Positions 12,094 through 35,027 of a DNA stretch of 64,000 nt are shown here, one piece after another. This DNA comes from Ignavibacteriota bacterium (lineage in GTDB: Bacteria; Bacteroidota; Ignavibacteria; UBA10030; SZUA-254). Under the pieces are notes generated by a model. It worked only from the letters and a program-made list of their open reading frames with translations. It made no database searches and was not told the DNA's origin. Every line of letters starts with the position of its first letter. Positions within the stretch are counted from its first letter, which is position 1. The translations under genes and the position numbers were made by a program. The DNA lies in assembly GCA_025358305.1 (NCBI GenBank), contig JANYJZ010000030.1:96382-160381 (forward strand). Reading direction: 5' to 3'.

Positions 12094-12103
12094 TTGGGCA
12101 ATG

Positions 12104-12175
12104 CTCCACAGGCGGGACTCGAACCTGCAACCCTCCGGTTAACAGCCGGATGCTCTACCATTGAGCTACTGTGGA
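12104..12175 (-). tRNA. tRNA-Asn (anticodon GTT)
   Basis: The minus-strand sequence TCCACAGTAGCTCAATGGTAGAGCATCCGGCTGTTAACCGGAGGGTTGCAGGTTCGAGTCCCGCCTGTGGAG folds as a cloverleaf. The D-arm is TAGCTCAATGGTAGAGC, the anticodon loop cTGTTAAc, the T-loop GGTTCGAGTCC, and the acceptor stem is 7 bp. The T-stem has one A-C mismatch. Confidence 0.8.
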
Positions 12176-16697: not shown

Positions 16698-19199
16698 ATG
16701 GAAGGAAATTTCTCGAACAGGGTTCAGGATGTCATCCGGCTCAGCCGCGAGGAAGCGCTCCGGCTGGGTCACGACTACATCGGCACAGAACACCTCCTTC
16801 TCGGCGTCATCCGTGAAGGCGAGGGGATCGCGGTCAAGATCCTCCGCAATCTCGGCGTCGATCTCTACAAGCTGAAGAAAGCGATCGAGGACACGGTCCG
16901 CACATCGGGCGGAACGCTCACGATCGGCAACATCCCGCTGACGAAACAGGCCGAAAAGGTCCTGAAGATCACCTATCTCGAGGCAAAGCTCTATAAGTCC
17001 GACGTCATCGGGACGGAGCATCTCCTCCTCTCGTTGTTGCGGGACGACGACAACATCGCCGCCCAGATCCTCCACCAGTTCAACGTCCATTACGACGTCG
17101 TCCGCAACGAGCTCGACAACATCATCAGCGGCAAACCCTCGAACCCGCCCGCGGCCCCGGCCGCGGAGCGCCGCGCCGACAAGTCCAAGACACCGGTCCT
17201 CGACAACTTCGGCCGCGATCTCACGAAGCTCGGCATGGAAGACAAGCTCGACCCGATCGTCGGCCGCGAGAAGGAGATCGAACGCGTCGCCCAGGTCCTG
17301 AGCCGCCGGAAGAAGAACAACCCCGTCCTCATCGGCGAGCCCGGCGTGGGAAAGACCGCCATCGCCGAAGGCCTCGCGCTGCGCATCGTCCAGAAAAAGG
17401 TGTCGCGCGTCCTCCACGACAAGCGCGTGGTGACGCTCGACCTCGCCGCGCTCGTCGCGGGCACGAAGTACCGCGGCCAGTTCGAAGAGCGGATGAAGGC
17501 CGTCATGAACGAGCTTGAAAAGGCAAAGGACGTCATCCTCTTCATCGACGAACTCCATACGATCGTCGGCGCCGGAGGCGCGTCCGGATCGCTCGACGCT
17601 TCGAACATGTTCAAGCCGGCCTTGGCGCGCGGCGACCTCCAGTGCATCGGCGCCACGACGCTCGACGAGTACCGCCAGTACATCGAGAAGGACGGGGCCC
17701 TCGACCGCCGCTTCCAGAAGATCATGGTCGATCCGACCTCCGTCGACGAGACCATCCAGATCCTCAAGAACATCAAGCACAAGTACGAAGAGCACCACAA
17801 TATCCGCTACACGGACAAGTCGCTCGAATCCGCCGTGCGCTTAAGCGACCGCTACATCACGGACCGGTACCTCCCGGACAAGGCGATCGACGTCATGGAC
17901 GAAGCGGGGTCGCGCGTTCACCTCTCGAACATCCACGTCCCGAAGCAGATCCTCGAGCTCGAGGGCGAAGTGGAGAAGATCCGCCAGTCGAAGAACAACG
18001 TCGTAAAGAACCAGAATTTTGAGGAAGCGGCCCGCCTGCGCGACCTCGAGAAGAAGCACCTGAGCGATCTCGACCTCGCGAAGCGCGAGTGGGAGCTCAA
18101 GGCCCAAGAGACGATCTACGAGGTGAACGAAGAGACGATGGCCGATGTCGTCGCGATGATGACCGGCATCCCCGTCAATAAGATCGCCCAATCGGAATCC
18201 GACAAGCTCCTGAAGATGGAGGACGCCCTCACCGGCATCATCGTCGGCCAGGAGGAGGCGATCGTCAAGCTCAGCAAAGCCATTCGCAGGACGCGTGCAG
18301 GCCTGAAGGACCCGAAGCGGCCGATCGGCTCGTTCATCTTTCTCGGGCCCACCGGCGTCGGCAAGACGGAGATGGCGAAGGCCCTCGCCCGGTATCTCTT
18401 CGACACGGAAGAGGCCCTCATCCGCATCGACATGAGCGAGTACATGGAGAAGTTCAGCGTCTCCCGTCTCGTCGGCGCGCCTCCGGGCTATGTCGGATAC
18501 GAGGAAGGCGGCCAGCTCACCGAGAAGGTCCGCCGGAAGCCCTACTCCGTCGTCCTCCTCGACGAGATCGAGAAGGCGCATCCGGACGTGTTCAACATCC
18601 TCCTCCAGGTCCTCGACGACGGCATCCTCACCGACAGCCTCGGCCGCCGGGTGGATTTCAAGAACACGATCCTCATCATGACCTCGAACATCGGCGCGCG
18701 CGACATCAAGTCGACCGGCGGGTTCGGGTTCGGCGCGGACACGCCCAAGGACAACTACAAGTCGATGAAGAACACGATCGAGGACGCGGTAAAGCGCGTC
18801 TTCAACCCGGAGTTCCTCAACAGGATCGACGACACGATCGTGTTCCACAGCCTCGACCGGGGACACATCGACAAGATCATCGGGATCCAGATGAAGGAGC
18901 TCATCAAGCGCATGGTGCAGCTTGATATCAACATACAGCTGACGAAGCAGGCGAGGGAGTTCCTCGTGGACAAGGGGTTCGACCCGGCGTTCGGCGCACG
19001 GCCGCTGAAGCGCGCGCTCCAGAAGTACATCGAAGATCCGATAGCGGAAGAGATCCTGCGCAACAAGTTCGGCCAGGGCAGCCTCGTCAAGGTGCGCCTG
19101 AACAAGAAGACCGAGACGCTGAAGTTCAGCGAGGGATCGAAGCGCCGGAAGGACGCGCCGGCTGAACCGGAGAAGCCGCAGAGCGCCAGCGTGAGCTGA
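16698..19199 (+). CDS. clpC: ATP-dependent Clp protease ATP-binding subunit ClpC (Clp/Hsp100 AAA+)
   Basis: Two Clp_N repeats ([42 protein letters not shown]). Two AAA+ modules with Walker A motifs GEPGVGKT and [12 protein letters not shown]-like linker, and a ClpB_D2-small C-terminus. Confidence 0.9.
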
Positions 19200-19229: not shown

Positions 19230-19263
19230 AACCCCGCCCCGGCGATCCGGAGCGGGGTTTTTT
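19230..19263. terminator. Bidirectional intrinsic terminator between the convergent clpC and PD40 genes
   Basis: aaccccgc[cccggcgatccggag]gcggggtt followed by TTTTTT on the plus strand. The complement is also followed by a T-rich stretch. Confidence 0.65.
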
Positions 19264-19284: not shown

Positions 19285-20226
19285 TCAGTGCGTCAGCTGC
19301 CGCGCTCCCGTGCCGTCTGCATTCATCACCCAGACCTCCATCGCGCCGGTGCGGTTGCTCTGGAAGGCGATGTGCGTGCCGTCGGGAAACCACGAGGGGG
19401 TCTCGTCCAGGTAGTTTTCGTCGTGCGGCGCGAGCTTCCGGGCGTCGCCCGTGCGGACATCGACGATCCAGATGTGCGCGGCCCCTTTTCGCTTCCGGCT
19501 GTTCACCTGGACGGCGAGGCGCCTTCCGTCCGCCGACCACGAGGGGCACTGCGCACCCCCCTCTTCCGCAGCGATACGGGTCACCTGCCGGACGTTCGAT
19601 CCGTCGGCGTCCATGACGTACACGGCGAGCTCCGACGCGGAGTCCTTGCGACTCGTGTAGGCGATTTGCTTCCCGTCGGGCGACCATCGGCTGTTCCAGG
19701 CGATGGAGAATCCGCCGTTGATGAGCCGCGGCGGCGCGCCGTCGAGCGTCGACAGGAGCAGCCGCGTAGCCGTCCACGTTCCCCCCATGGAGACGAGTCT
19801 CGTGCCGTCCGGCGAGAGGGCCGGGCTGCGGCCGGAAACGCGGGCGAGCAGCTTTCTCTCCGATCCGTCCGGAGCGACGGCGAAGACGCTGCTCGTGTCG
19901 CTCGCGAAGACTGAGTAGACAAGCCGCGCGCCTCCCCGGGTCCACCCGGCGACCGCCTCATGCTCCGGAGAGTCGGTCAGGCGCGTAGCCGTTCCTCCGG
20001 CGGCCGGAATGAGAAAGAGGTCGTCCTTGCCGTCGACCGTCGAGGTGAAGGCGATCGTCCCGCCGTCCGGCGCAACGCACGGGGCCCCGCTCGTTCGTAC
20101 GGTCTTCACGGGAGTGGGCTGCGCCCCCGACATCGTGAACAGGCAGGCAACGACCAGAAGGGAGACACCGCCCGCGATTCGGGCGGCGATCCTGGGATGA
20201 CGGTTGAAGGGGTGCATAGGCCTCAT
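19285..20226 (-). CDS. Periplasmic PD40/TolB-like beta-propeller repeat protein
   Basis: Signal peptide present. Repeated SPDG...LV/A... blades (SWSPDGKQIAYTS, SWSADGRRLAVQ, SWFPDGTHIAFQSNRTG) are typical of PD40 repeats. Confidence 0.7.
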   Translation of the reverse strand: MRPMHPFNRHPRIAARIAGGVSLLVVACLFTMSGAQPTPVKTVRTSGAPCVAPDGGTIAFTSTVDGKDDLFLIPAAGGTATRLTDSPEHEAVAGWTRGGARLVYSVFASDTSSVFAVAPDGSERKLLARVSGRSPALSPDGTRLVSMGGTWTATRLLLSTLDGAPPRLINGGFSIAWNSRWSPDGKQIAYTSRKDSASELAVYVMDADGSNVRQVTRIAAEEGGAQCPSWSADGRRLAVQVNSRKRKGAAHIWIVDVRTGDARKLAPHDENYLDETPSWFPDGTHIAFQSNRTGAMEVWVMNADGTGARQLTH

Positions 20227-21198
20227 TCACTTCCAGATGTACGGTTGCTGGTTCGAGCCGTCGGCATGCATTGTCCAGATCTCCCAATTGCCATGACGCC
20301 GGTTCGTTTGAAAGTACACTGTCGTCCCCTCGGGCGACCATCGGGGCATTTCGTTGTCTCCGTCCTTCGTCTCGACGATCTTCGTCAGCTCGGTGCCATC
20401 CGCCTTCACCGCGTAGATGCAAAACCGCTTTCCCTCATTTGCCCACTGGAACAGCAGCTGCTGCCCATCCGGGGACCACGAACAGTACTCCCCGATCGAC
20501 GTGATGTAACGTTCGGTTCCCGTCGCCAGATCGAAGACGGCGAGGCCGCGCTCGCGCTCCGTTTCGGTCTTCTGCCGGATGCATCTGTAGGCGATCCTGT
20601 CCCCTCCCGGCGAGTATACCGCCCCGTAGCGGATCCCGCCTGGGGCGATGAGGGTGTCGACCGTTCCATTGACGAGATCCACGCGGTAGATCCCGAGACG
20701 GGGGAACGTACCTGCGGCGCAGATGAACCCCTTCCCGTCAGGGGTCCATGACGGTGTTTGCGGCAGTACGAGGTGAAACCTCGTACTGACGTCTTCGGCC
20801 GTGTCTCGCTTCAGATCGTAGATGCAGACGACCCCCTCCTTCGGCGTATAGAGGACGCTCGCTCCGTCAGCGGAGATGAGAGGCATGGAACCTTCACAGA
20901 GCAGGCGGTCCGAGGTATCTGCGACCGACCTCCGGAAGAAGATCTTGATCTTGCCTTCGGACCTGTTCGATTCGTAGGCGAACGACCCGCTGGCGGACAC
21001 AAAGGGCATGGAGTAATTGTAGGTCCCAACCCTGAGCAGCTGCATCCCGCACAACGGACACTGGCCTCCTGTCTCAAGGACCTTCGCGTCGTTCGGACAG
21101 TTGCACGGTGCGCAGTAGTATCCCGCGGGCGTCTGCGAGAAGCTGAGCACGGAGGCGAACGCGGCGAGCATCCAGCAAGCGAACATGCGGCTTTTCAT
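20227..21198 (-). CDS. PD40 beta-propeller protein with an N-terminal Cys-rich (CxxC-x14-CxxC) putative metal-binding motif
   Basis: The start is set at MKSRMFACW (21198). After the signal peptide comes YYCAPCNCPNDAKVLETGGQCPLCGM, then PD40 blades (SWTPDGKGF, YSPGGDRIAY, SWSPDGQQLLF, RWSPEGTTVYFQTNR). It abuts the downstream PD40 gene. Confidence 0.6.
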   Translation of the reverse strand: MKSRMFACWMLAAFASVLSFSQTPAGYYCAPCNCPNDAKVLETGGQCPLCGMQLLRVGTYNYSMPFVSASGSFAYESNRSEGKIKIFFRRSVADTSDRLLCEGSMPLISADGASVLYTPKEGVVCIYDLKRDTAEDVSTRFHLVLPQTPSWTPDGKGFICAAGTFPRLGIYRVDLVNGTVDTLIAPGGIRYGAVYSPGGDRIAYRCIRQKTETERERGLAVFDLATGTERYITSIGEYCSWSPDGQQLLFQWANEGKRFCIYAVKADGTELTKIVETKDGDNEMPRWSPEGTTVYFQTNRRHGNWEIWTMHADGSNQQPYIWK

Positions 21199-21314
21199 GC
21201 GATCCTCTCGTCCCTGAAATGGTGACAACTGCCCCATGGGAGCCCCGTTCGGTCCCATGCTCAGAGGGTACGCGAAGGGCGCCGGAAGGTTGCAGGCGGC
21301 GCCGCCAGGAAGGC

Positions 21315-23684
21315 TCAATAGCCCTGTTCCTGCACCTCCGTCGCGACGATGTCGAGCGTCCTGTGCATCTCGCCGAGGATGGATGTGAACTCGGGATCGC
21401 CGCGGAGCCCGTCGAACCAACTGTCCGACTGGTACCACGAATACCAGTAGTTCCCGAGGCGGGTCGCCCGGCGCATCCAGGCGAGCGCCTCGACGCGGTT
21501 CCCCAGCTTCGCATGGATCGCGGCTGCCTGCCGGGCCATGGCGTAGTCGAACTCCACGAACCCCTTGATCCGGCCGAGCGCACGGCCCGCCGCGGCCGTA
21601 TCTCCCCGCGCCGCCGCCAGCATGGCGCGCGCGAGATCGACCTGCGGGCTCGTCGGCTCGCTTTGTGCAGCGCGCGTGATCTCCTCCTCCGCCTTGCCGA
21701 GGTCGTCGAGCCTGATGTAGCTCAGGGCGAGGAGACCGGCCCGGAGCCACGCGTCGTCCGGGCTGCGTTGAATGGCGCGCTGGAGGTGGAAGATGCTCTC
21801 GCGGTACCGGCCTTGGAACTGGTACATCCGGGCGCGGACCCGATCGATGTTGAACGTCGGATCATAGTCGGCTGCGCGGTCGAAGATCTCCTTCGCGCGG
21901 TCGAACTCGCCCCGATACTGATAGAAGACGCCGACGTCCTCGAGTGACGAGCTCGAATGCGGATCGATCGCGAGCGCGCGGAAGGACTCCCTCACACCCG
22001 CCGGGTAATCGCCCTTGACGCGCAATGCAAATCCGAGCGCGGCGTGCGCCATCGCCATCGACGGATCGATCGCGAGCGCCTTCCGGGCCGTCACCTCCCC
22101 CTTCCCGACCCACGCGGTGTCCGCCGAATAATTGCTCCAGAACTGTTCGACGTAGACGTCGCTGAGCCGCGCGTAGGCTTGGGCGAAGAGCGAATCGCGC
22201 CCGACCGCGCGCTCGAACTGCGCCATGGCATTCTGGTTGTTCGCTTTCGAGCTCTTGTTGAGGTAGCCGATCCCCCGCAGGTATGCCTCGTAGGCCACGT
22301 GGCTCGACGTGCTCACCTTGTGGAGCGCCTGAACCTCCCCCTCGGTGAGGGGGATCCGGAGCCCTTCGACGATCCGTTCCGAGATGTTGTCCTGCACGTC
22401 CCGCATGTCCTGCCAGAGGAAGTCAAGCTTGTCCGCGACAAGGATCGCGCCCGAACCGACGTCCACGAGCTGGAAATTCACGTAGAGCCGGTCCCCCATC
22501 CGCTGGAACCTGCCCTCGAGGACGAACTCCGTTCCGAGGTCCGCGCCGGCCTTCGCCGCCGTGACACTCTTGCCCTCGAACGCGACGATCGCGCTCGTCG
22601 GACGCACGAGGAGCGACCGGACGTACGAGAGCCTCGTGATGATGTCGTCCGCGAACCCGATGGAGAGGAAGTTGCTCGCGGAGTCCTGCGCGGCGTTCGT
22701 AAACGGTAGGACGGCGATGGTCTTCTGCGCCCGGAAGGGGTTTCCGAAGCCGCGGAGGAGGAAGTACGATCCGATCCCGACGGCGACGAGGAGGACTGCC
22801 GCGATCACGGCGAGCCGCGGCGGCAGGAGCGTCGCGTCGATCGTGCGGCGCATGTTCGGGTGCGCCCGGAGCCGCTCAAGGTCGTTCCGGACCTCCGTCA
22901 TCGTTTGGTAGCGCCGGCGGCGGTCCTTCTGCATCGCTTTCGCGATGATGCGGACAAGTTCACCCGAGGTTCCCGGGCGGACCTTTGCCGGTGAATCGGC
23001 GTGCTTCCGGGTGATCGACGTGAGGAGCTCCGCGACCGTCCTTCCCTTGAACGGCAGCTCGCCTGCCACCATGAGGTAAAGGAGCGTCCCGAAGGAAAAG
23101 ATGTCGCTCTGGGCATCGATCTCCTCCTCGTTGATCTGCTCCGGCGACATGTAGGCAAAGGTCCCGATGAGGCTCCCGGGACTCGTCACGTGGCTCGACC
23201 CCATGAGGCGCGCCAAGCCGAAGTCCATGACCTTCACTTGGCCCTGCGTCGAGATCATGACGTTCTCCGGCTTGATGTCGCGGTGCACGATGCCGTGGTC
23301 GTGGGCGTCGGCGATGCCTGCGGCGATCTGGCCCGCGATCTCGAGTACGCGGTCGGCGCCGAGCGGTCCTTCCAGGAGGAGCGCCCCGAGCGTCTTTCCC
23401 TCGACGCATTCACTGGCGATGAACGCCGTGCCGTCGATCTCATCGAACTCATGGATGGTGACGATGTTCGGATGGTTGAGCGACGAGGCGAGACGCGCTT
23501 CCTGGAAGAACCGCGCCCGGTCGTCGGGGGATGCGGCGAGGATGGCGGGAAACACCTTGAGGGCGACGAACCGGTGGAGCTTCAGGTCCTCCGCCCGGTA
23601 GACAATGCCCATCCCGCCCTCGCCGAGCTTGGAGACTACGCGGTAATGAGAAATGGTCTGCCCGAGCATGCCGGATGGTCCCAT
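21315..23684 (-). CDS. Serine/threonine protein kinase with a transmembrane helix, a TolB-N-like periplasmic domain and C-terminal TPR repeats
   Basis: Hanks kinase motifs GEGGMG, VALKV, HRDIKPEN, DFGLA and SPEQ. A transmembrane helix (LAVIAAVLLVAVGIGSYFLL). Then IAVLPFTNAAQD...FVLEGRFQRMGDRLYVNFQLVD, a TolB-amino-terminal-like module, and then TPR-like repeats. The start is set to MGPSGMLGQT (23684). Confidence 0.75.
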   Translation of the reverse strand: MGPSGMLGQTISHYRVVSKLGEGGMGIVYRAEDLKLHRFVALKVFPAILAASPDDRARFFQEARLASSLNHPNIVTIHEFDEIDGTAFIASECVEGKTLGALLLEGPLGADRVLEIAGQIAAGIADAHDHGIVHRDIKPENVMISTQGQVKVMDFGLARLMGSSHVTSPGSLIGTFAYMSPEQINEEEIDAQSDIFSFGTLLYLMVAGELPFKGRTVAELLTSITRKHADSPAKVRPGTSGELVRIIAKAMQKDRRRRYQTMTEVRNDLERLRAHPNMRRTIDATLLPPRLAVIAAVLLVAVGIGSYFLLRGFGNPFRAQKTIAVLPFTNAAQDSASNFLSIGFADDIITRLSYVRSLLVRPTSAIVAFEGKSVTAAKAGADLGTEFVLEGRFQRMGDRLYVNFQLVDVGSGAILVADKLDFLWQDMRDVQDNISERIVEGLRIPLTEGEVQALHKVSTSSHVAYEAYLRGIGYLNKSSKANNQNAMAQFERAVGRDSLFAQAYARLSDVYVEQFWSNYSADTAWVGKGEVTARKALAIDPSMAMAHAALGFALRVKGDYPAGVRESFRALAIDPHSSSSLEDVGVFYQYRGEFDRAKEIFDRAADYDPTFNIDRVRARMYQFQGRYRESIFHLQRAIQRSPDDAWLRAGLLALSYIRLDDLGKAEEEITRAAQSEPTSPQVDLARAMLAAARGDTAAAGRALGRIKGFVEFDYAMARQAAAIHAKLGNRVEALAWMRRATRLGNYWYSWYQSDSWFDGLRGDPEFTSILGEMHRTLDIVATEVQEQGY

Positions 23685-23975: not shown

Positions 23976-26228
23976 ATGAGACTCATATTTTTACTCACAG
24001 GCCTCCTCCTCTGCGCTCTGCCGGCCCGATCGAACGCAGGGACCTTTCAGAGAGTTGAGGGGACGCTCAGCGGGTTCGTTCGCGATAGCGCCAACGGCGA
24101 GTCGATCCCCTTCGCGTCGGTATACATCAAGGGATTGAAGATCGGGACGGCCACCAACGCGGAAGGCTACTTCGCCATTCCCAACGTACCCGACGGTGAA
24201 CATGAGGTCCAAGTCTCCATCGTCGGATATCTGCCGTCGCTCTTTGTCATTGCGGTCGAGAACGGTGCCGACATCGTCCACAATATCTCCCTCGTCGCTC
24301 AGTCGGTGGACATTCCGCAGGTAGTGGTGACGGCCGACCTCGAGGAGGAGCGGCGCGCGACGCAAACGAGCCACGTGATCCTCCAAGCGGCCGATGTGAC
24401 GACGATGCCGACGGTGGGGGAGCCGGACATCTTTCGCGCGCTCCAGCTCATGCCCGGCGTCAAAGCAACTTCCGAGATCTCCAGCGGGCTGAACGTCCGA
24501 GGGGGGAGCACCGACCAGAATCTCATCCTGCTCGATGGGACCGTCGTGTACAATCCATCGCACTTCTTTGGGTTCTTCAGCACGTTCAATACTGACGCTG
24601 TCAAGGATATCGACCTCATGAAGGGAGGCTTCCCGGCCGAATACGGCGGGCGGCTCTCCTCAGTGCTCAACGTGACGAACATCGACGGGGACCGGATGAA
24701 GAGCCGCGGCAAGGCGTCCATCAGCCTCCTGAGTACCCGGCTCACCGGTGAGGGGCCCGTCGGGGACGGATCCTGGTTCCTCTCCGCCCGGCGGACCTAC
24801 TTCGACCAGTTCATCTCTCTGGCGCATCTCGACACCGGCAAGGACGCTCTCCCGCTCTACTACTTCTACGATGCGAACTTCAAGCTCAATCAGAATTTCG
24901 GACAGAACGACAAGCTCTCCATCGTCGGCTATCTCGGCCAGGACAACCTTGATTGGAAGATCGGGAAGAATGAACTCGCCATCGATATGTCGTGGGGCAA
25001 CCGCACCGGCGCGCTGAAGTGGACGCACGTGTTCAGTCCGACCGTCTTCTCGAACATCATGGCCACCTACAGCAGATACACCGCGGCGATCGGCGTCGGA
25101 TTCAGCGGATCGCACTTCGAACAGGACAACGGGGTCGACGACTATTCGCTGCGAACCGATGTCGACTTCTTCGTGACGAACGACCATTTTATGAAACTCG
25201 GGGCCTGGTGGTCCGCCTACCGGGTCTCGTATCAGCAGTTCAGCGATGGCGACCCGTACGTCTTCCTCAACCGCCCCTCCCAGATCGCCCTCTACGCGGA
25301 GGACGAGTGGCAGTACGACCTGCGGTGGAAGATCCAGTACGGATTCCGGTTTGAATACCAGAACCTCTCCCGGTCCTCCACTATCGGCCCGCGGTTGAAC
25401 CTGCACTATGCGATCAGCGACAATACATCTCTGAAGTTCGCCACGGGGTTCTACCACCAGTATCTCACCGCGGTACCGGCCGGCACCGACAATGGGTTCT
25501 CCCCGTTCGATATCTGGGTCCCGATCAACGACAAGATGAAGACAAGCCGAGCCTACGACCTTGTCATGGGGTACGAAACGAAGAACATCGCCGATATGGT
25601 CGTGACGCTTGAGGCATATTACAAGAAGTTCAACAACATCCTCTACTTCAGAAACGAGATCACGGATTCCAGGGATGTGAGCGACCTCTTCTACACCGGC
25701 TCGGGCGACGCGTACGGCGTGGAACTCTTCCTGAACAAATCGGTCGGCCGTCTCACCGGCATGATCGGTTATACGCTTGCCTGGACCAACCGGAGGTTCC
25801 CTGAACTGAATCGCGGTGCGTCGTTCATGCCGAAGTATGACAGGAGGCACGATCTCTCGGTCACGGCATCATACGCCCTGAGCCCGGACTGGAAGATCGG
25901 ATCGGCATTCACCTACCAGACCGGGCAGCCCTATACTACCGGCGTGGCTCGCTACCAGGTGGATGCGAACGGCGCAATGTTCAGCCAGACCCTGCCCGGC
26001 CCCCTGTTCAACCGCCGCCTTTCGGCGTACAATCGTCTCGATTTCATGATCTCCAAGAGAATGTCGATCTTCGGACTCCAGGGAAGCTGGTACATCCAGG
26101 TCTACAACATCTACAGCCGGCGGAACGTCTGGTTCAAGCAATTCGATGATGCGAAGAACCCCGCGGAGGTCTCCGACGTCAAACTTCTCCCCATCATCCC
26201 GACGGTGGGGATGGAGGTATCGTTCTGA
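23976..26228 (+). CDS. TonB-dependent receptor with an N-terminal carboxypeptidase-regulatory-like domain
   Basis: Signal peptide. A CarbopepD_reg-like segment (GTLSGFVRDSANGESIPFASVYIKGLKIGTATNAEGYFAI), a plug, and a 22-strand barrel ending in an aromatic residue (MEVSF). Confidence 0.85.
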   Translation: MRLIFLLTGLLLCALPARSNAGTFQRVEGTLSGFVRDSANGESIPFASVYIKGLKIGTATNAEGYFAIPNVPDGEHEVQVSIVGYLPSLFVIAVENGADIVHNISLVAQSVDIPQVVVTADLEEERRATQTSHVILQAADVTTMPTVGEPDIFRALQLMPGVKATSEISSGLNVRGGSTDQNLILLDGTVVYNPSHFFGFFSTFNTDAVKDIDLMKGGFPAEYGGRLSSVLNVTNIDGDRMKSRGKASISLLSTRLTGEGPVGDGSWFLSARRTYFDQFISLAHLDTGKDALPLYYFYDANFKLNQNFGQNDKLSIVGYLGQDNLDWKIGKNELAIDMSWGNRTGALKWTHVFSPTVFSNIMATYSRYTAAIGVGFSGSHFEQDNGVDDYSLRTDVDFFVTNDHFMKLGAWWSAYRVSYQQFSDGDPYVFLNRPSQIALYAEDEWQYDLRWKIQYGFRFEYQNLSRSSTIGPRLNLHYAISDNTSLKFATGFYHQYLTAVPAGTDNGFSPFDIWVPINDKMKTSRAYDLVMGYETKNIADMVVTLEAYYKKFNNILYFRNEITDSRDVSDLFYTGSGDAYGVELFLNKSVGRLTGMIGYTLAWTNRRFPELNRGASFMPKYDRRHDLSVTASYALSPDWKIGSAFTYQTGQPYTTGVARYQVDANGAMFSQTLPGPLFNRRLSAYNRLDFMISKRMSIFGLQGSWYIQVYNIYSRRNVWFKQFDDAKNPAEVSDVKLLPIIPTVGMEVSF

Positions 26229-26296
26229 TGCTGATCGCCGCTCACACGAGAAACAGCAAGAACCTCCGACCGCACGCGATCGCACTTCTTCGCGCC

Positions 26297-27145
26297 ATGA
26301 CCCGTGCCGTCGCCGTCGCGCTCATACTGCTCATTGCCGTGCTCTCAGGCTGCGATGAAGCAACGTCGCCCTTTGATTACCGGCGGGAAGTTGTCGTGAA
26401 CGCGACCCTCGTCGCAGGCGAACATTTCGCCGACGTGTTCCTGACATGGTCCGGCAGGGTCGATGAGTATTACAGTCCTTTGGGCTTGGGGATCCGGGGA
26501 GCGCTCGTCATCATCAGCGACGCCCAAGGAGTGTTCGCCGATACGCTTCTCCCCGATAACGGCTACCCTGGACGCTACACCTCCGCGTCCTTCCGATCGG
26601 TGCAGCCTCGTCAAACGTACAATCTCTATGTCAGGACCCAGGAACCCGACGTACGGGTCGTCACCGGCACCACGAGCGTTCCCGATACCTTTCGCATCAC
26701 CGCATCGACGCTGCACAACGGGGACAGGGTCCGCTACGATCTGGACGCGCCCGTCCATTCGTTCGCATGGTCGACCTGCGGGAACTTTTCCGCCTATCTC
26801 CCGACCGTGTGGTCGATGGACGCGAATCCTGCGCTCATACCAAAGGCGTATTACGGCGACACCGCGAGCGCGACCTTCAAACGGCCGAGCCGCACCGTCT
26901 ACCGCATCGGACTCCCAAAGACGCAAACGAACACCGATGTTCCCTGGCTGTTCCTGAATTATTATGGGAGGACGAGATTTGATATCTTTGCCGTGGACGA
27001 GAACTTGGCTGACTTCCTCCGCCAGTGGCTGGCGCTGCAGACGGGGGAGCTGAAGGAGATCCGCTACAAGCTCCAGGGTGGGATCGGCTTGTTCTGTTCC
27101 AAGTCGCGTGCGGAGAACGGCGTTGAGGTCTATTTTGTGAAGTGA
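26297..27145 (+). CDS. DUF4249-family lipoprotein (a frequent partner of TonB-dependent receptors in the FCB group)
   Basis: Lipobox LSGC. The size, composition and position immediately after the receptor are typical of DUF4249. The start is set to M24; the ORF in the track begins at 26228. Confidence 0.5.
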   Translation: MTRAVAVALILLIAVLSGCDEATSPFDYRREVVVNATLVAGEHFADVFLTWSGRVDEYYSPLGLGIRGALVIISDAQGVFADTLLPDNGYPGRYTSASFRSVQPRQTYNLYVRTQEPDVRVVTGTTSVPDTFRITASTLHNGDRVRYDLDAPVHSFAWSTCGNFSAYLPTVWSMDANPALIPKAYYGDTASATFKRPSRTVYRIGLPKTQTNTDVPWLFLNYYGRTRFDIFAVDENLADFLRQWLALQTGELKEIRYKLQGGIGLFCSKSRAENGVEVYFVK

Positions 27146-31787: not shown

Positions 31788-34700
31788 TCAGAACGTGACC
31801 TTCAGTGTCACCATCGAATGCTTCTTCGTGTGGACCCGGACGGTCGTGCCGTTCGAGGGCACCGGCGTACCGGTCCCCTCGAGCGCGTCGGAGAGCACGA
31901 CCTTCGACGGCGCCTTCGGCAGCGTCAGTTCTCCGTCGGCATCCTTCCCTTCGGCGTCGTACCACTGGATGATCCACGCATCCTCGTCCTCCGCCTTCTT
32001 CACCGTCGTGAGGATGAGCGACCCCGGCGAGAGCGCCACGAACGAATGCGACGCCGGCAGCGTCCGCGCACTCCCCTTGGCGGCCATCACCGGGATGAGA
32101 GGGTTGTTGTACTCGTACCCGCGATGGACGGTCATCGAGGATCCAACGCGTCCCTCGTGGGGATAGAGGGCGTAGTCGATCGAATGCTTGCCCCGGTCCG
32201 CCGTTGGATCGGGCCACTTCGGAGACCGCAGGAGCGAGAGCTGCGCGACGTTCCCCTTGATGTCGTAGCCGTACTTCGAGCGGTTGAGGAGGCTCACCCC
32301 GTAGTCGTCCTGGGAGAGGTCCGCCCAGCGCTGGGCGGGGACTTCCACTTTCGCGCTGTCCCAGCTGTTCCGCCATCCGGTCGACCGCCGGATCGAGCCG
32401 AACGGGATCTCGTAGGTCGCGGCGGTGTCGGTCACGGCCAGCGGGAAGGCGACCTTCGCCATCGTCTTCTCCTCCCACCAGTCGATGTTCGTCGTGAAGT
32501 CGATCCGGTCGAGGTTCTGATAGAGGATGACGTCCTGAGTGATGAACGTCGACGGAAAATCCTCCGTCGGGAAGTCCTTCTTTGTCCCGGGTTTGAGGTA
32601 GTCGCGCGTCATACGGATGACCGAGCGGACGGGACCCCGTTCGACGATCTCGACCTTCCGGAGCGTCGTCGGATACTGGACGCCCGTGAGTCCGATGTTC
32701 CAAGCGTCCCACGCCGACGGCGTATCCTGGAGAAACTGCAGCTCGTTCCCCGCGCCGGTGAGGAGTTCCCGGCCCCTGCGCTTGTCGACGAGGCTTTTGA
32801 GCCAGCCGCTCGCCGGATCGACCTCCGCCCGGAAGAGCGGGCTTTCGATGACGCTGCCCGGAGCAGCGGCAGCGGCGGCGGCGTCAGCCGCGGCCGCCGG
32901 GCCCGTCCTGAGTTCGTAGACCTTGTAGCCGATAGGGGGAACGTCGTCCGCGACGAAGAGAAGCTTGTGGCGTCGCGGGCCGTCGCTCACGATTTGGGAG
33001 GGCACGGCCGTCCCTCGATCGTCCGCCACCGAGTACTGCGGCGGCGAACTCCCTTCGGGGAGATCGAGCGTGACGAGGTCCGAGCGCTTCCAGGCGAGCG
33101 CGTTGAAGACGACGACCGGCGTCCCCTTCACCGACGGGGCTTTGACGGCGCCGGCGATCTGTTCAAGGGACGCGCGAAGCTCGGACGTTCCGATCGACAT
33201 GGACGCCGCGTACCGCTCCGCCGCGTCGATGTAGATCTCGCGGATGCCGGAGCCGGGAAGCAGGTCGTGGAACTGGTTGAAGAGCACCCCTCTCCAGGCC
33301 TCCTCGAGGTCCGCTCCCCGGTACGGCTTCCCGTAGAGGGTGGCGAGCGTCGAGAACTTCTCCGCGTTCGTCAGGAGGACCTCGCTGCGGCGGTTGTTGC
33401 TCTTCATCGCCGACTGTGTCGTGTACGTTCCCTGATGGTACTCAAGGTAGAGTTCGTCCTTCCACACCGGAAGGTTCGCCAGGTCCTGCTGCCGGATCCA
33501 GGAAAGATAGGTTCCGGTGTTGCCATACTCGATCGTGGGGTAGATGTCGATCGTCTTCAAGCGTTCGATGCGGTCGATCATCTCGAGCGAGGGTCCGCCG
33601 CCGTGGTCGCCGACGCCGAAGAGGATCATCATCTTTGTCATGCCGGTGTTCGCCTCGAACTGCCGCGACCAGTCGACGAGCTGGTACGGGTCGTCGATCG
33701 TGTTCACATAGTCGAACGGGAAGTAGCTCAGGACCCGCGACCCGTCGGGGGACTCCCACCAAAAGAGGCGGTACGGAAACACGTTCGTCGCGTTCCATCC
33801 GATCTTCTGCGTGATGAAGGCATCGATGCCGGCGTTCTGATAGAACATCGGCATGTTCCCGTTGTACCCGAACGAATCGGGGTTCCAACCGATCTTCACG
33901 TCGGCGCCGAGGCTCTTCCGGAAGTAGCGCTTCGCGTAGAGAAGGTGGCGCATCCATGATTCGCCGCTAGGCAGATTGCAGTCGGGCTCGACCCACATGC
34001 CGCCCGTGACCTCCCACCGGCCTTCCGCGACCCTCTTCTTGATCCCCTGGAACAGGTCGGGATAGAGCTTGTCCATCCAGTCGTAGTACGCGGCGGCGCT
34101 CTGCGTGTAGGTGAACTCGGGGCGCGCGTTCATCATGTTGAGGACGGAGGAGAACGTGTTCCGGACGACCTGCTTCGTCTCCGCGTCCCGCCAGAGCCAT
34201 GCGGCGTCGATATGCGCATTCGCGTCGAAATAGAGCGTGAACTTCCGCGCGTACTCGCTCACCGGACGCAAAAGCGGCCTGATCACGTCGACCGAGCGGC
34301 GGTATCCGGCGGCGTCTCCCGCGGCGAGGGCCTTCACGTCCACCCGAGCCGCAAGCGACTGGAGAAGGTCGTTCAGCCGGAGCTTTTCCGTGCGGTCCAT
34401 ATGGGACCGGTCGGTCCCCGGATCAAGCTTTCGCCGGGCGTTCGTCTGGTACGTGTCGAAGCTCAGGAGCTTCTGGCCGACGCGCAGCGACAGAGAGAGG
34501 TCCTCGATGCTCTGGCGGAGCTCCTTCGACGCGGCGGTCGTGACTTCGGCGCGGATGAGCCGGAGCGGACCGCCCGTGTTGATCGCCTTGATGACGATGA
34601 GGAACTTTTGGCCCGGGGAGGCGTTGCGCGTCAGCTCGAAATCGCCGTCCCACGGGAACATCCCTTTGCTCTCCCCGTTCACCCAGAGGTACCCGTAGTC

Positions 34701-35027
34701 GTCGACGGAGAGGAGAAGCCGCACAGGGCCGCTGATCGGGGCCCCGAGGACGTTCTGGGGGAGGACGATCTCCTTCCGAATCCAGCAGGAATCGGGGTAG
34801 ATCGATTCATTGAGGGAGAGGGTGTTCCACTGCGCATCGTCGAACCCGGGCTTCGTTGGGGCGTCCCCGATGGACCGGAGCCCCTTGAGATCGGCGCTCA
34901 CCTTCCAGTGGTTGAACGAAAGGCTGCCGAGGGAGTCGAGGGCGCCGGCGAGGCGGTCGACGTTCGTTTGCGCCGGCGAGAGCTGAAGGGCGACGAAGAG
35001 CGCCAGGAGAACGGTGAGAGTTTTCAT
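31788..35027 (-). CDS. Alpha-mannosidase, glycoside hydrolase family 38
   Basis: 1079 aa with a signal peptide. GWNPDSFGY and GVGDHGG are GH38 catalytic motifs. The overall length and the C-terminal beta-sandwich domain fit GH38. Confidence 0.8.
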   Translation of the reverse strand: MKTLTVLLALFVALQLSPAQTNVDRLAGALDSLGSLSFNHWKVSADLKGLRSIGDAPTKPGFDDAQWNTLSLNESIYPDSCWIRKEIVLPQNVLGAPISGPVRLLLSVDDYGYLWVNGESKGMFPWDGDFELTRNASPGQKFLIVIKAINTGGPLRLIRAEVTTAASKELRQSIEDLSLSLRVGQKLLSFDTYQTNARRKLDPGTDRSHMDRTEKLRLNDLLQSLAARVDVKALAAGDAAGYRRSVDVIRPLLRPVSEYARKFTLYFDANAHIDAAWLWRDAETKQVVRNTFSSVLNMMNARPEFTYTQSAAAYYDWMDKLYPDLFQGIKKRVAEGRWEVTGGMWVEPDCNLPSGESWMRHLLYAKRYFRKSLGADVKIGWNPDSFGYNGNMPMFYQNAGIDAFITQKIGWNATNVFPYRLFWWESPDGSRVLSYFPFDYVNTIDDPYQLVDWSRQFEANTGMTKMMILFGVGDHGGGPSLEMIDRIERLKTIDIYPTIEYGNTGTYLSWIRQQDLANLPVWKDELYLEYHQGTYTTQSAMKSNNRRSEVLLTNAEKFSTLATLYGKPYRGADLEEAWRGVLFNQFHDLLPGSGIREIYIDAAERYAASMSIGTSELRASLEQIAGAVKAPSVKGTPVVVFNALAWKRSDLVTLDLPEGSSPPQYSVADDRGTAVPSQIVSDGPRRHKLLFVADDVPPIGYKVYELRTGPAAAADAAAAAAAPGSVIESPLFRAEVDPASGWLKSLVDKRRGRELLTGAGNELQFLQDTPSAWDAWNIGLTGVQYPTTLRKVEIVERGPVRSVIRMTRDYLKPGTKKDFPTEDFPSTFITQDVILYQNLDRIDFTTNIDWWEEKTMAKVAFPLAVTDTAATYEIPFGSIRRSTGWRNSWDSAKVEVPAQRWADLSQDDYGVSLLNRSKYGYDIKGNVAQLSLLRSPKWPDPTADRGKHSIDYALYPHEGRVGSSMTVHRGYEYNNPLIPVMAAKGSARTLPASHSFVALSPGSLILTTVKKAEDEDAWIIQWYDAEGKDADGELTLPKAPSKVVLSDALEGTGTPVPSNGTTVRVHTKKHSMVTLKVTF

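Follow-up and report, generated by a model that had tools for sequence, protein, structure and literature searches.

CadC of Escherichia coli has a periplasmic disulfide switch, and PknD of Mycobacterium tuberculosis is a Hanks-type kinase with an NHL propeller as its sensor. TolB and the stand-alone protein Atu1656 (PDB 2OJH) are six-bladed PD40 propellers of the periplasm, and CopA of Legionella (LpCopA), a P-type ATPase, bears a cytoplasmic metal-binding domain of about 30 residues that Pfam lists as HMBD (PF19335). We compared with these systems a cluster of three genes at positions 19285..23684 of a 64,000-nucleotide stretch from an Ignavibacteriota bacterium (contig JANYJZ010000030.1; the whole stretch is referred to as the window), which encodes a receptor kinase and two exported propellers. 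A sequence-only reading of the window had suggested that they could form a periplasmic sensing assembly reporting to the kinase, or one that senses redox state or metal. We think it probable, though well short of certain, that the cluster is instead a juxtaposition of three ordinary envelope genes and not a conserved signalling module. The three genes are as follows.

21315..23684, minus strand: transmembrane Hanks-type Ser/Thr kinase, 789 aa (Pkinase, catalytic motifs, membrane helix)
20227..21198, minus strand: secreted HMBD-propeller (propeller 1), 323 aa (Pfam PD40 and HMBD, family alignments, structure model)
19285..20226, minus strand: secreted stand-alone TolB-like PD40 propeller (propeller 2), 313 aa (PD40 108.7 bits, three stretches)

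We took conserved co-occurrence in related genomes as the mark of a dedicated kinase-propeller operon, and such co-occurrence was not found. Tblastn detected no PD40 relatives in the four loci that carry orthologues of the kinase (L093, 71% identical in the sensor; L094, 63%; L095, 59%; and L096, labelled Ignavibacteriae, 48%). The window has the following genes of the surrounding backbone, together with a receptor gene pair.

31788..35027: GH38-like gene, in common with L093-L095
28953..31772: melibiase-like gene, in common with L093-L095
27496..28944, minus strand: GAF/sigma-54 activator (enhancer-binding protein)
23976..27145, plus strand: TonB-dependent receptor pair, a 750-aa protein with CarboxypepD_reg and Plug domains and an abutting 305-aa open reading frame (ORF) with no Pfam match
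16698..19199, plus strand: clpC, convergent with the kinase

Upstream of and including the kinase, L093-L095 have in common the order GH38 mannosidase, melibiase, GAF/sigma-54 activator and kinase; the upstream genes of L096 are different. On the other side of the kinase, L093, L094 and L096 have clpC in convergent orientation, and in L095 the contig stops about 1.1 kb beyond the kinase. In L094 and L096 no gene fills the slot directly after the kinase, in L095 an opposite-strand Peptidase_Mx-like gene does, and in L093 (10711..12009) it is occupied by a gene co-directional with the kinase and encoding an unrelated 432-aa lipoprotein (lipobox MAGC) that belongs to no Pfam family. Measured against this backbone, the window has two insertions, the propeller gene pair and the TonB-dependent receptor pair, and the propeller genes sit where gene content varies between the kinase and clpC. 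The receptor pair lies between the kinase and the sigma-54 activator, divergent from the kinase; it was seen in the window only and is absent from L093-L095.

The same picture was obtained from the side of the propellers. Neither a kinase nor a second propeller adjoins the HMBD-propeller gene in any of eight loci (L006-L009 and L089-L092), whose neighbours are all different except in the related L008 and L009. A scan of the genome collection returned a single full HMBD-propeller orthologue among the species representatives (L009), so that few genomic contexts were available. For propeller 2, a kinase lies nearby in one of 32 related metagenome loci, a distant one, and in none of its four closest relatives from metagenome contigs. 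The identical three-gene order recurs on five independent short assemblies (L001-L005), all of the same species. Because the kinase and propeller genes are neighbours in this one species only, they probably do not constitute a dedicated sensing machine, and the proposal of an assembly that reports to the kinase fails where its conservation could be checked (zero of four kinase loci and zero of eight HMBD-propeller loci). The neighbours, or partners, that stay with the kinase are the GAF/sigma-54 activator (L093-L095) and clpC (L093, L094 and L096), and the propellers are not among them; as a functional partner or substrate of the kinase, the activator is more plausible than either propeller. 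The value of this outcome is mostly negative: an attractive operon of a kinase plus periplasmic sensor proteins appears to be a species-specific juxtaposition.

The kinase itself was read correctly from the sequence as a Hanks domain, one transmembrane helix and a periplasmic module with TolB-N-like and TPR parts. Membership of the Hanks type was judged by the Pfam gathering score together with the motifs GxGxxG, VAxK, HRDxKxxN, DFG and [AS]PE. Pkinase (PF00069) scored 170.4 bits against a gathering cut-off of 31.7, and the catalytic set is intact (GEGGMG21, VALK40, HRDIKPEN134, DFG154 and SPE180), which places the protein in this type. The catalytic domain occupies residues 14-267 and the single hydrophobic helix residues ~288-310, followed by an extracytoplasmic part of 479 residues (311-789) in which TPR repeats and a TPR end-of-group domain are recognized. 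The likelier start is the second ATG (23669), where the gene starts of the orthologues (783-788 aa) align; the protein would then have 784 aa.

The extracytoplasmic part (311-789) has the CadC fold, with an alpha/beta TolB-N-like subdomain and then a TPR superhelix, modelled with about 11 helical repeats. This arrangement stands right after the membrane helix, as it does in the CadC sensor domain (PDB 3LY7), the closest solved relative, and in the widespread extracytoplasmic modules that join a TolB-like domain (COG5616) to TPR; the kinase thereby falls into the CadC-fold structural class. The two sensors are only 14% identical in sequence, and the helical part of the kinase sensor, at ~340 residues, is much longer. 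CadC has a ToxR-like DNA-binding output, whereas the output here is a Hanks kinase. Direct reading of the sequence gave zero cysteines in the periplasmic part of the kinase, and a disulfide switch of the CadC type is therefore impossible. Identity with CadC itself, for which we required at least 400 bits against the PRK10153 equivalog of NCBIfam and an N-terminal ToxR-like DNA-binding domain, was rejected: the kinase reached 26.1 bits, over residues 335-514 only, and its cytoplasmic domain is a kinase.

In homologues of the sensor module the output is a kinase, a winged-helix domain (PF00486), an adenylate cyclase (PF00211), a TIR or a BTAD domain. The module is a common, output-swappable sensor, and the kinase adds one member to a common type of CadC-fold receptor kinase. 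As a one-pass receptor whose TolB-N-like subdomain is predicted to pack on the TPR superhelix, it would sense a periplasmic ligand or protein through the CadC-fold module and phosphorylate targets in the cytoplasm.

Propeller 1 consists of a Sec signal peptide (residues 1 to ~22), an HMBD variant (~26-56) and a TolB-like PD40 propeller (~60-323). Its structure model has a predicted local distance difference test (pLDDT) value of 87.7, with >90 in the propeller part, and contains 24 strands arranged as six four-stranded blades. The best Foldseek matches were to TolB (1crz) and 2ojh (E 1e-14 to 1e-13; template modelling score ~0.6). TolB being the best solved structural or sequence relative of both propellers, one could suppose that they are true TolB proteins, components of Tol-Pal through which the kinase regulates envelope integrity. 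We regard this as highly improbable and rejected the identity. We defined TolB by at least 343 bits against TIGR02800, a TolB N-terminal domain and a tol-pal gene context; the two propellers scored 79 and 139 bits, and each blade domain follows the HMBD or the signal peptide directly, with no TolB N-terminal domain before it. None of tolQ, tolR, tolA and pal was identified among the flanking genes examined, the neighbours being the kinase and clpC.

Propeller 2 is an ordinary protein, a generic stand-alone periplasmic TolB-like propeller. Its family is very large (6606 matches), and many members are 50-60% identical to it, about 300 aa long and likewise stand-alone. A possible lipobox (L-V-V-A-C, residues 20-27) is present in its signal peptide, and by this motif propeller 2 may be a lipoprotein instead of being soluble in the periplasm. 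In public gene calls it begins at an ATG 9 nucleotides (three codons) further in. The two propellers are only 26% identical to each other and so are not recent duplicates; a tandem duplication was rejected on this ground and because propeller 2 has far closer relatives elsewhere.

Propeller 1, by contrast with this very large family, belongs to a rare one. A search among 5.8 billion clusters gave 13 relatives at 41-51% identity, and a HMMER scan with the full-length family profile, run on 1.84 billion representatives, yielded two distant but true members at ~35% identity, P0490 (338 aa) and P0435 (598 aa), in an output swamped by long multi-repeat PD40 proteins. About 16 members are known, all Sec-exported. 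P0435 has the order propeller, HMBD, propeller in a single chain, with the all-Cys motif intact. At 2101..3047 of L008, two ORFs, one of 94 aa with the HMBD and one of 215 aa with the propeller, stand in place of a single HMBD-propeller gene; the cause would be a frameshift or pseudogene, or else an assembly error.

The N-terminal segment of propeller 1 carries YYCAPCNCPNDAKVLETGGQCPLCGM, the CxxC-x14-CxxC arrangement noticed in the sequence-only reading, with a fifth Cys inside it (pattern C-x2-C-x-C-x12-C-x2-C-x-M). Conservation of the motif in orthologues was examined, and it is kept: it is present in all relatives of propeller 1 whose N-terminus is known, and C7, C10, C12, D15, G23, C25, C28 and M30 are invariant in an N-terminal alignment of 13 sequences with overall identity down to 35%. 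That alignment leaves out P0010, which alone has lost the first Cys of the motif and has Trp there.

The motif had been likened to zinc-ribbon or TRASH-type metal sites. The idea of a metal-site type of element stands, and the family name does not: neither YHS nor TRASH is among the 20 families that the 13 N-terminal segments matched at E<=1, and this identity was rejected for want of a profile match. The better assignment is HMBD, which matches all 13 family N-termini at E<=1, with a best E value of 1.8e-8. A PDB profile search with the motif placed LpCopA, by its N-terminal metal-binding domain (8ovl and 3rfu), at the top, at marginal E values of 0.03-0.3, and tblastn of the motif against plasmids led to the N-termini of copper P-type ATPases. 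A paper that cites PF19335 describes an MXCXXC ferredoxin-like chaperone and is not informative for HMBD. Propeller 1 joins two known domains in a rare and undescribed combination, and its ligand set is altered.

The nature of this alteration is apparent from the solved domain. By nuclear magnetic resonance, the LpCopA domain (PDB 8OVL) has a small beta-sheet core and holds Ag(I)/Cu(I) by three sulfurs, those of M44, C59 and M61 in the sequence C42-P-M44-H ... C56-P-L-C59-G-M61 (PMC11970713). Propeller 1 resembles it in the size of the domain and in the outline Y-x-C...G-x-C-P-x-C-G-M-x-L, and the equivalents of C59 and M61 are invariant in the HMBD-propeller family. LpCopA has C-P-M-H where the family has C-[AS]-P-C-x-C. 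The M44 position is occupied by Pro in 10 of 13 sequences and by Ala in the other three, flanked by two extra invariant Cys, one at the position of the CPMH His and one further on. The spacing between the motif halves is 2-4 residues longer in the family, and the HMBD, which in LpCopA is a cytoplasmic part of a P-type ATPase, is here Sec-exported and fused to a PD40 propeller. The family therefore lacks the canonical three-sulfur ligand set and has a variant site. From these residues we infer that the family offers a soft-metal site, most likely for Cu(I), built from Cys/Cys/Met sulfurs in the periplasm. An HMBD mini-domain of the CopA type placed directly on a six-bladed TolB-like propeller would bind the soft metal ion, and the propeller would supply a platform for a protein or peptide.

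The main rival to a metal site of this kind is a purely structural role, in which the Cys cluster, as a zinc-ribbon-like knuckle or as a cap stapled by disulfides, stabilizes the N-terminus of the propeller, with no part in metal sensing or trafficking. Replacement of the CPMH His by Cys yields a classical four-ligand C-x2-C...C-x2-C, weak zinc-ribbon matches were obtained (Zn_Ribbon_TF in 4 of 13 sequences, E 0.0025), and propeller 1 is exported by Sec to a compartment where cysteines often form disulfides; metal-homeostasis neighbours were seen in no locus inspected. Against this stand the number of conserved Cys, five, which is odd for disulfides, and the Met after the second CxxC, which is invariant in 13 of 13 sequences even where the preceding Gly varies. 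A plain zinc ribbon needs no such Met, its equivalent in LpCopA is a Cu(I)/Ag(I) ligand (PMC11970713), and no other family matches nearly as well as HMBD. We consider the structural role a real but minor possibility, at something like one chance in a few.

Several observations nevertheless weigh against the soft-metal reading of propeller 1. Its own HMBD score is 19.2 bits over the full length and 21.5 for the segment, against a Pfam cut-off of 23.6, and the HMBD part of its model is of low confidence (pLDDT 58-72). With Pro in place of the CPMH Met ligand, the putative metal site differs from the solved one, and copper-homeostasis genes adjoin none of the family members in the loci inspected. 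A bolder proposal would make the HMBD-propellers an undescribed periplasmic class for handling Cu(I) or other soft metals, whose HMBD serves a client bound to the propeller by loading or sensing metal, and which in this one lineage is wired, with the second propeller, as a metal/redox co-sensor to a receptor kinase of the CadC fold; we hold this to be quite improbable. The remaining interest of the locus lies in the family itself, in which a small CopA-type domain works beyond the cell membrane, carried on a propeller, and the ligand set is a putative all-sulfur variant, Cys/Cys/Met. If an HMBD-propeller binds Cu(I), it would represent a new type of periplasmic copper-handling protein in Bacteroidota and Ignavibacteriota-like bacteria.

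The layout of the cluster bears on whether a link might exist in this species alone. As the sequence-only reading had it, the ORF list gives three co-directional genes on the minus strand, in the order kinase, propeller 1 and propeller 2, and the ATG of propeller 2 directly follows the TGA of propeller 1. Two further elements delimit the unit.

21199..21314, minus strand: spacer between kinase and propeller 1, 116 nucleotides, with a ribosome-binding-like site (GAGAGGA) 5 nucleotides before the ATG
19230..19259, minus strand: terminator-like hairpin just 3' of propeller 2, 13 pairs (10 of them G-C) and a T-run

No terminator-like site was found in the 116-nucleotide spacer, and the hairpin at 19259..19230 closes off the three genes opposite the convergent clpC. 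Co-transcription of the propeller genes with the kinase is probable in this species, given the lack of a terminator ahead of them, the direct abutment of their stop and start codons and the strong terminator behind propeller 2. Directly 3' of the kinase stop codon, at 21299..21310 on the minus strand, lies a perfect 12-nucleotide palindrome, GGCGGCGCCGCC, which has no T-run and so is not terminator-like. A scan for sigma-70 promoters gave zero sites, which is uninformative, since the phylum may use other promoter types.

Some points count against simple juxtaposition. The three genes resemble one transcription unit in this species, which leaves room for a lineage-specific functional link. The inspected loci numbered just four for orthologues of the kinase and eight for HMBD-propellers, and the nearest HMBD-propeller relative is only 48% identical, so that no close relative puts the pairing to the test. 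One can accordingly picture a lineage-specific assembly in which the exported propellers have been recruited as co-sensors, dock on the TPR superhelix of the kinase and modulate it, with propeller 1 reporting on metal or redox state. The operon-like layout would suit such an assembly, as would the repeats of the sensor model, TPR superhelices being known to bind proteins. Hanks kinases of Anaerolineae are fused to extracellular PD40 propellers (822 aa in L082; also L066 and L073), and these fusions imply that PD40 propellers can act as kinase sensors. In kinases of that type, however, the propeller is the protein's own C-terminal sensor, whereas the window kinase already possesses a full sensor of the CadC fold, and the propellers are encoded apart from it by genes that are non-syntenic. 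P0435, which fuses a second propeller in front of an HMBD-propeller, might seem to link the two window propellers, but its extra propeller is equally far from propeller 2 and propeller 1 (46 and 47 bits); as a Rosetta-stone link to propeller 2 it gives no specific support and was rejected. Synteny is conserved from neither side, and the kinase orthologues retain the same sensor with no propeller neighbour. We therefore judge a lineage-specific assembly unlikely, and retain juxtaposition as the preferred reading.

The Anaerolineae locus L082 (4905..11257; Anaerolineae and Caldilineaceae, with similar arrangements in L066 and L073) encodes the 822-aa Hanks kinase with its membrane helix and C-terminal PD40 propeller, and the gene before it encodes a membrane protein of 1237 aa, likewise terminating in a PD40 propeller.

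Rfam and ARAGORN scans of the window placed no RNA gene within the three-gene cluster and returned one elsewhere.

12103..12175, minus strand: tRNA-Asn (GTT), found by both Rfam and ARAGORN

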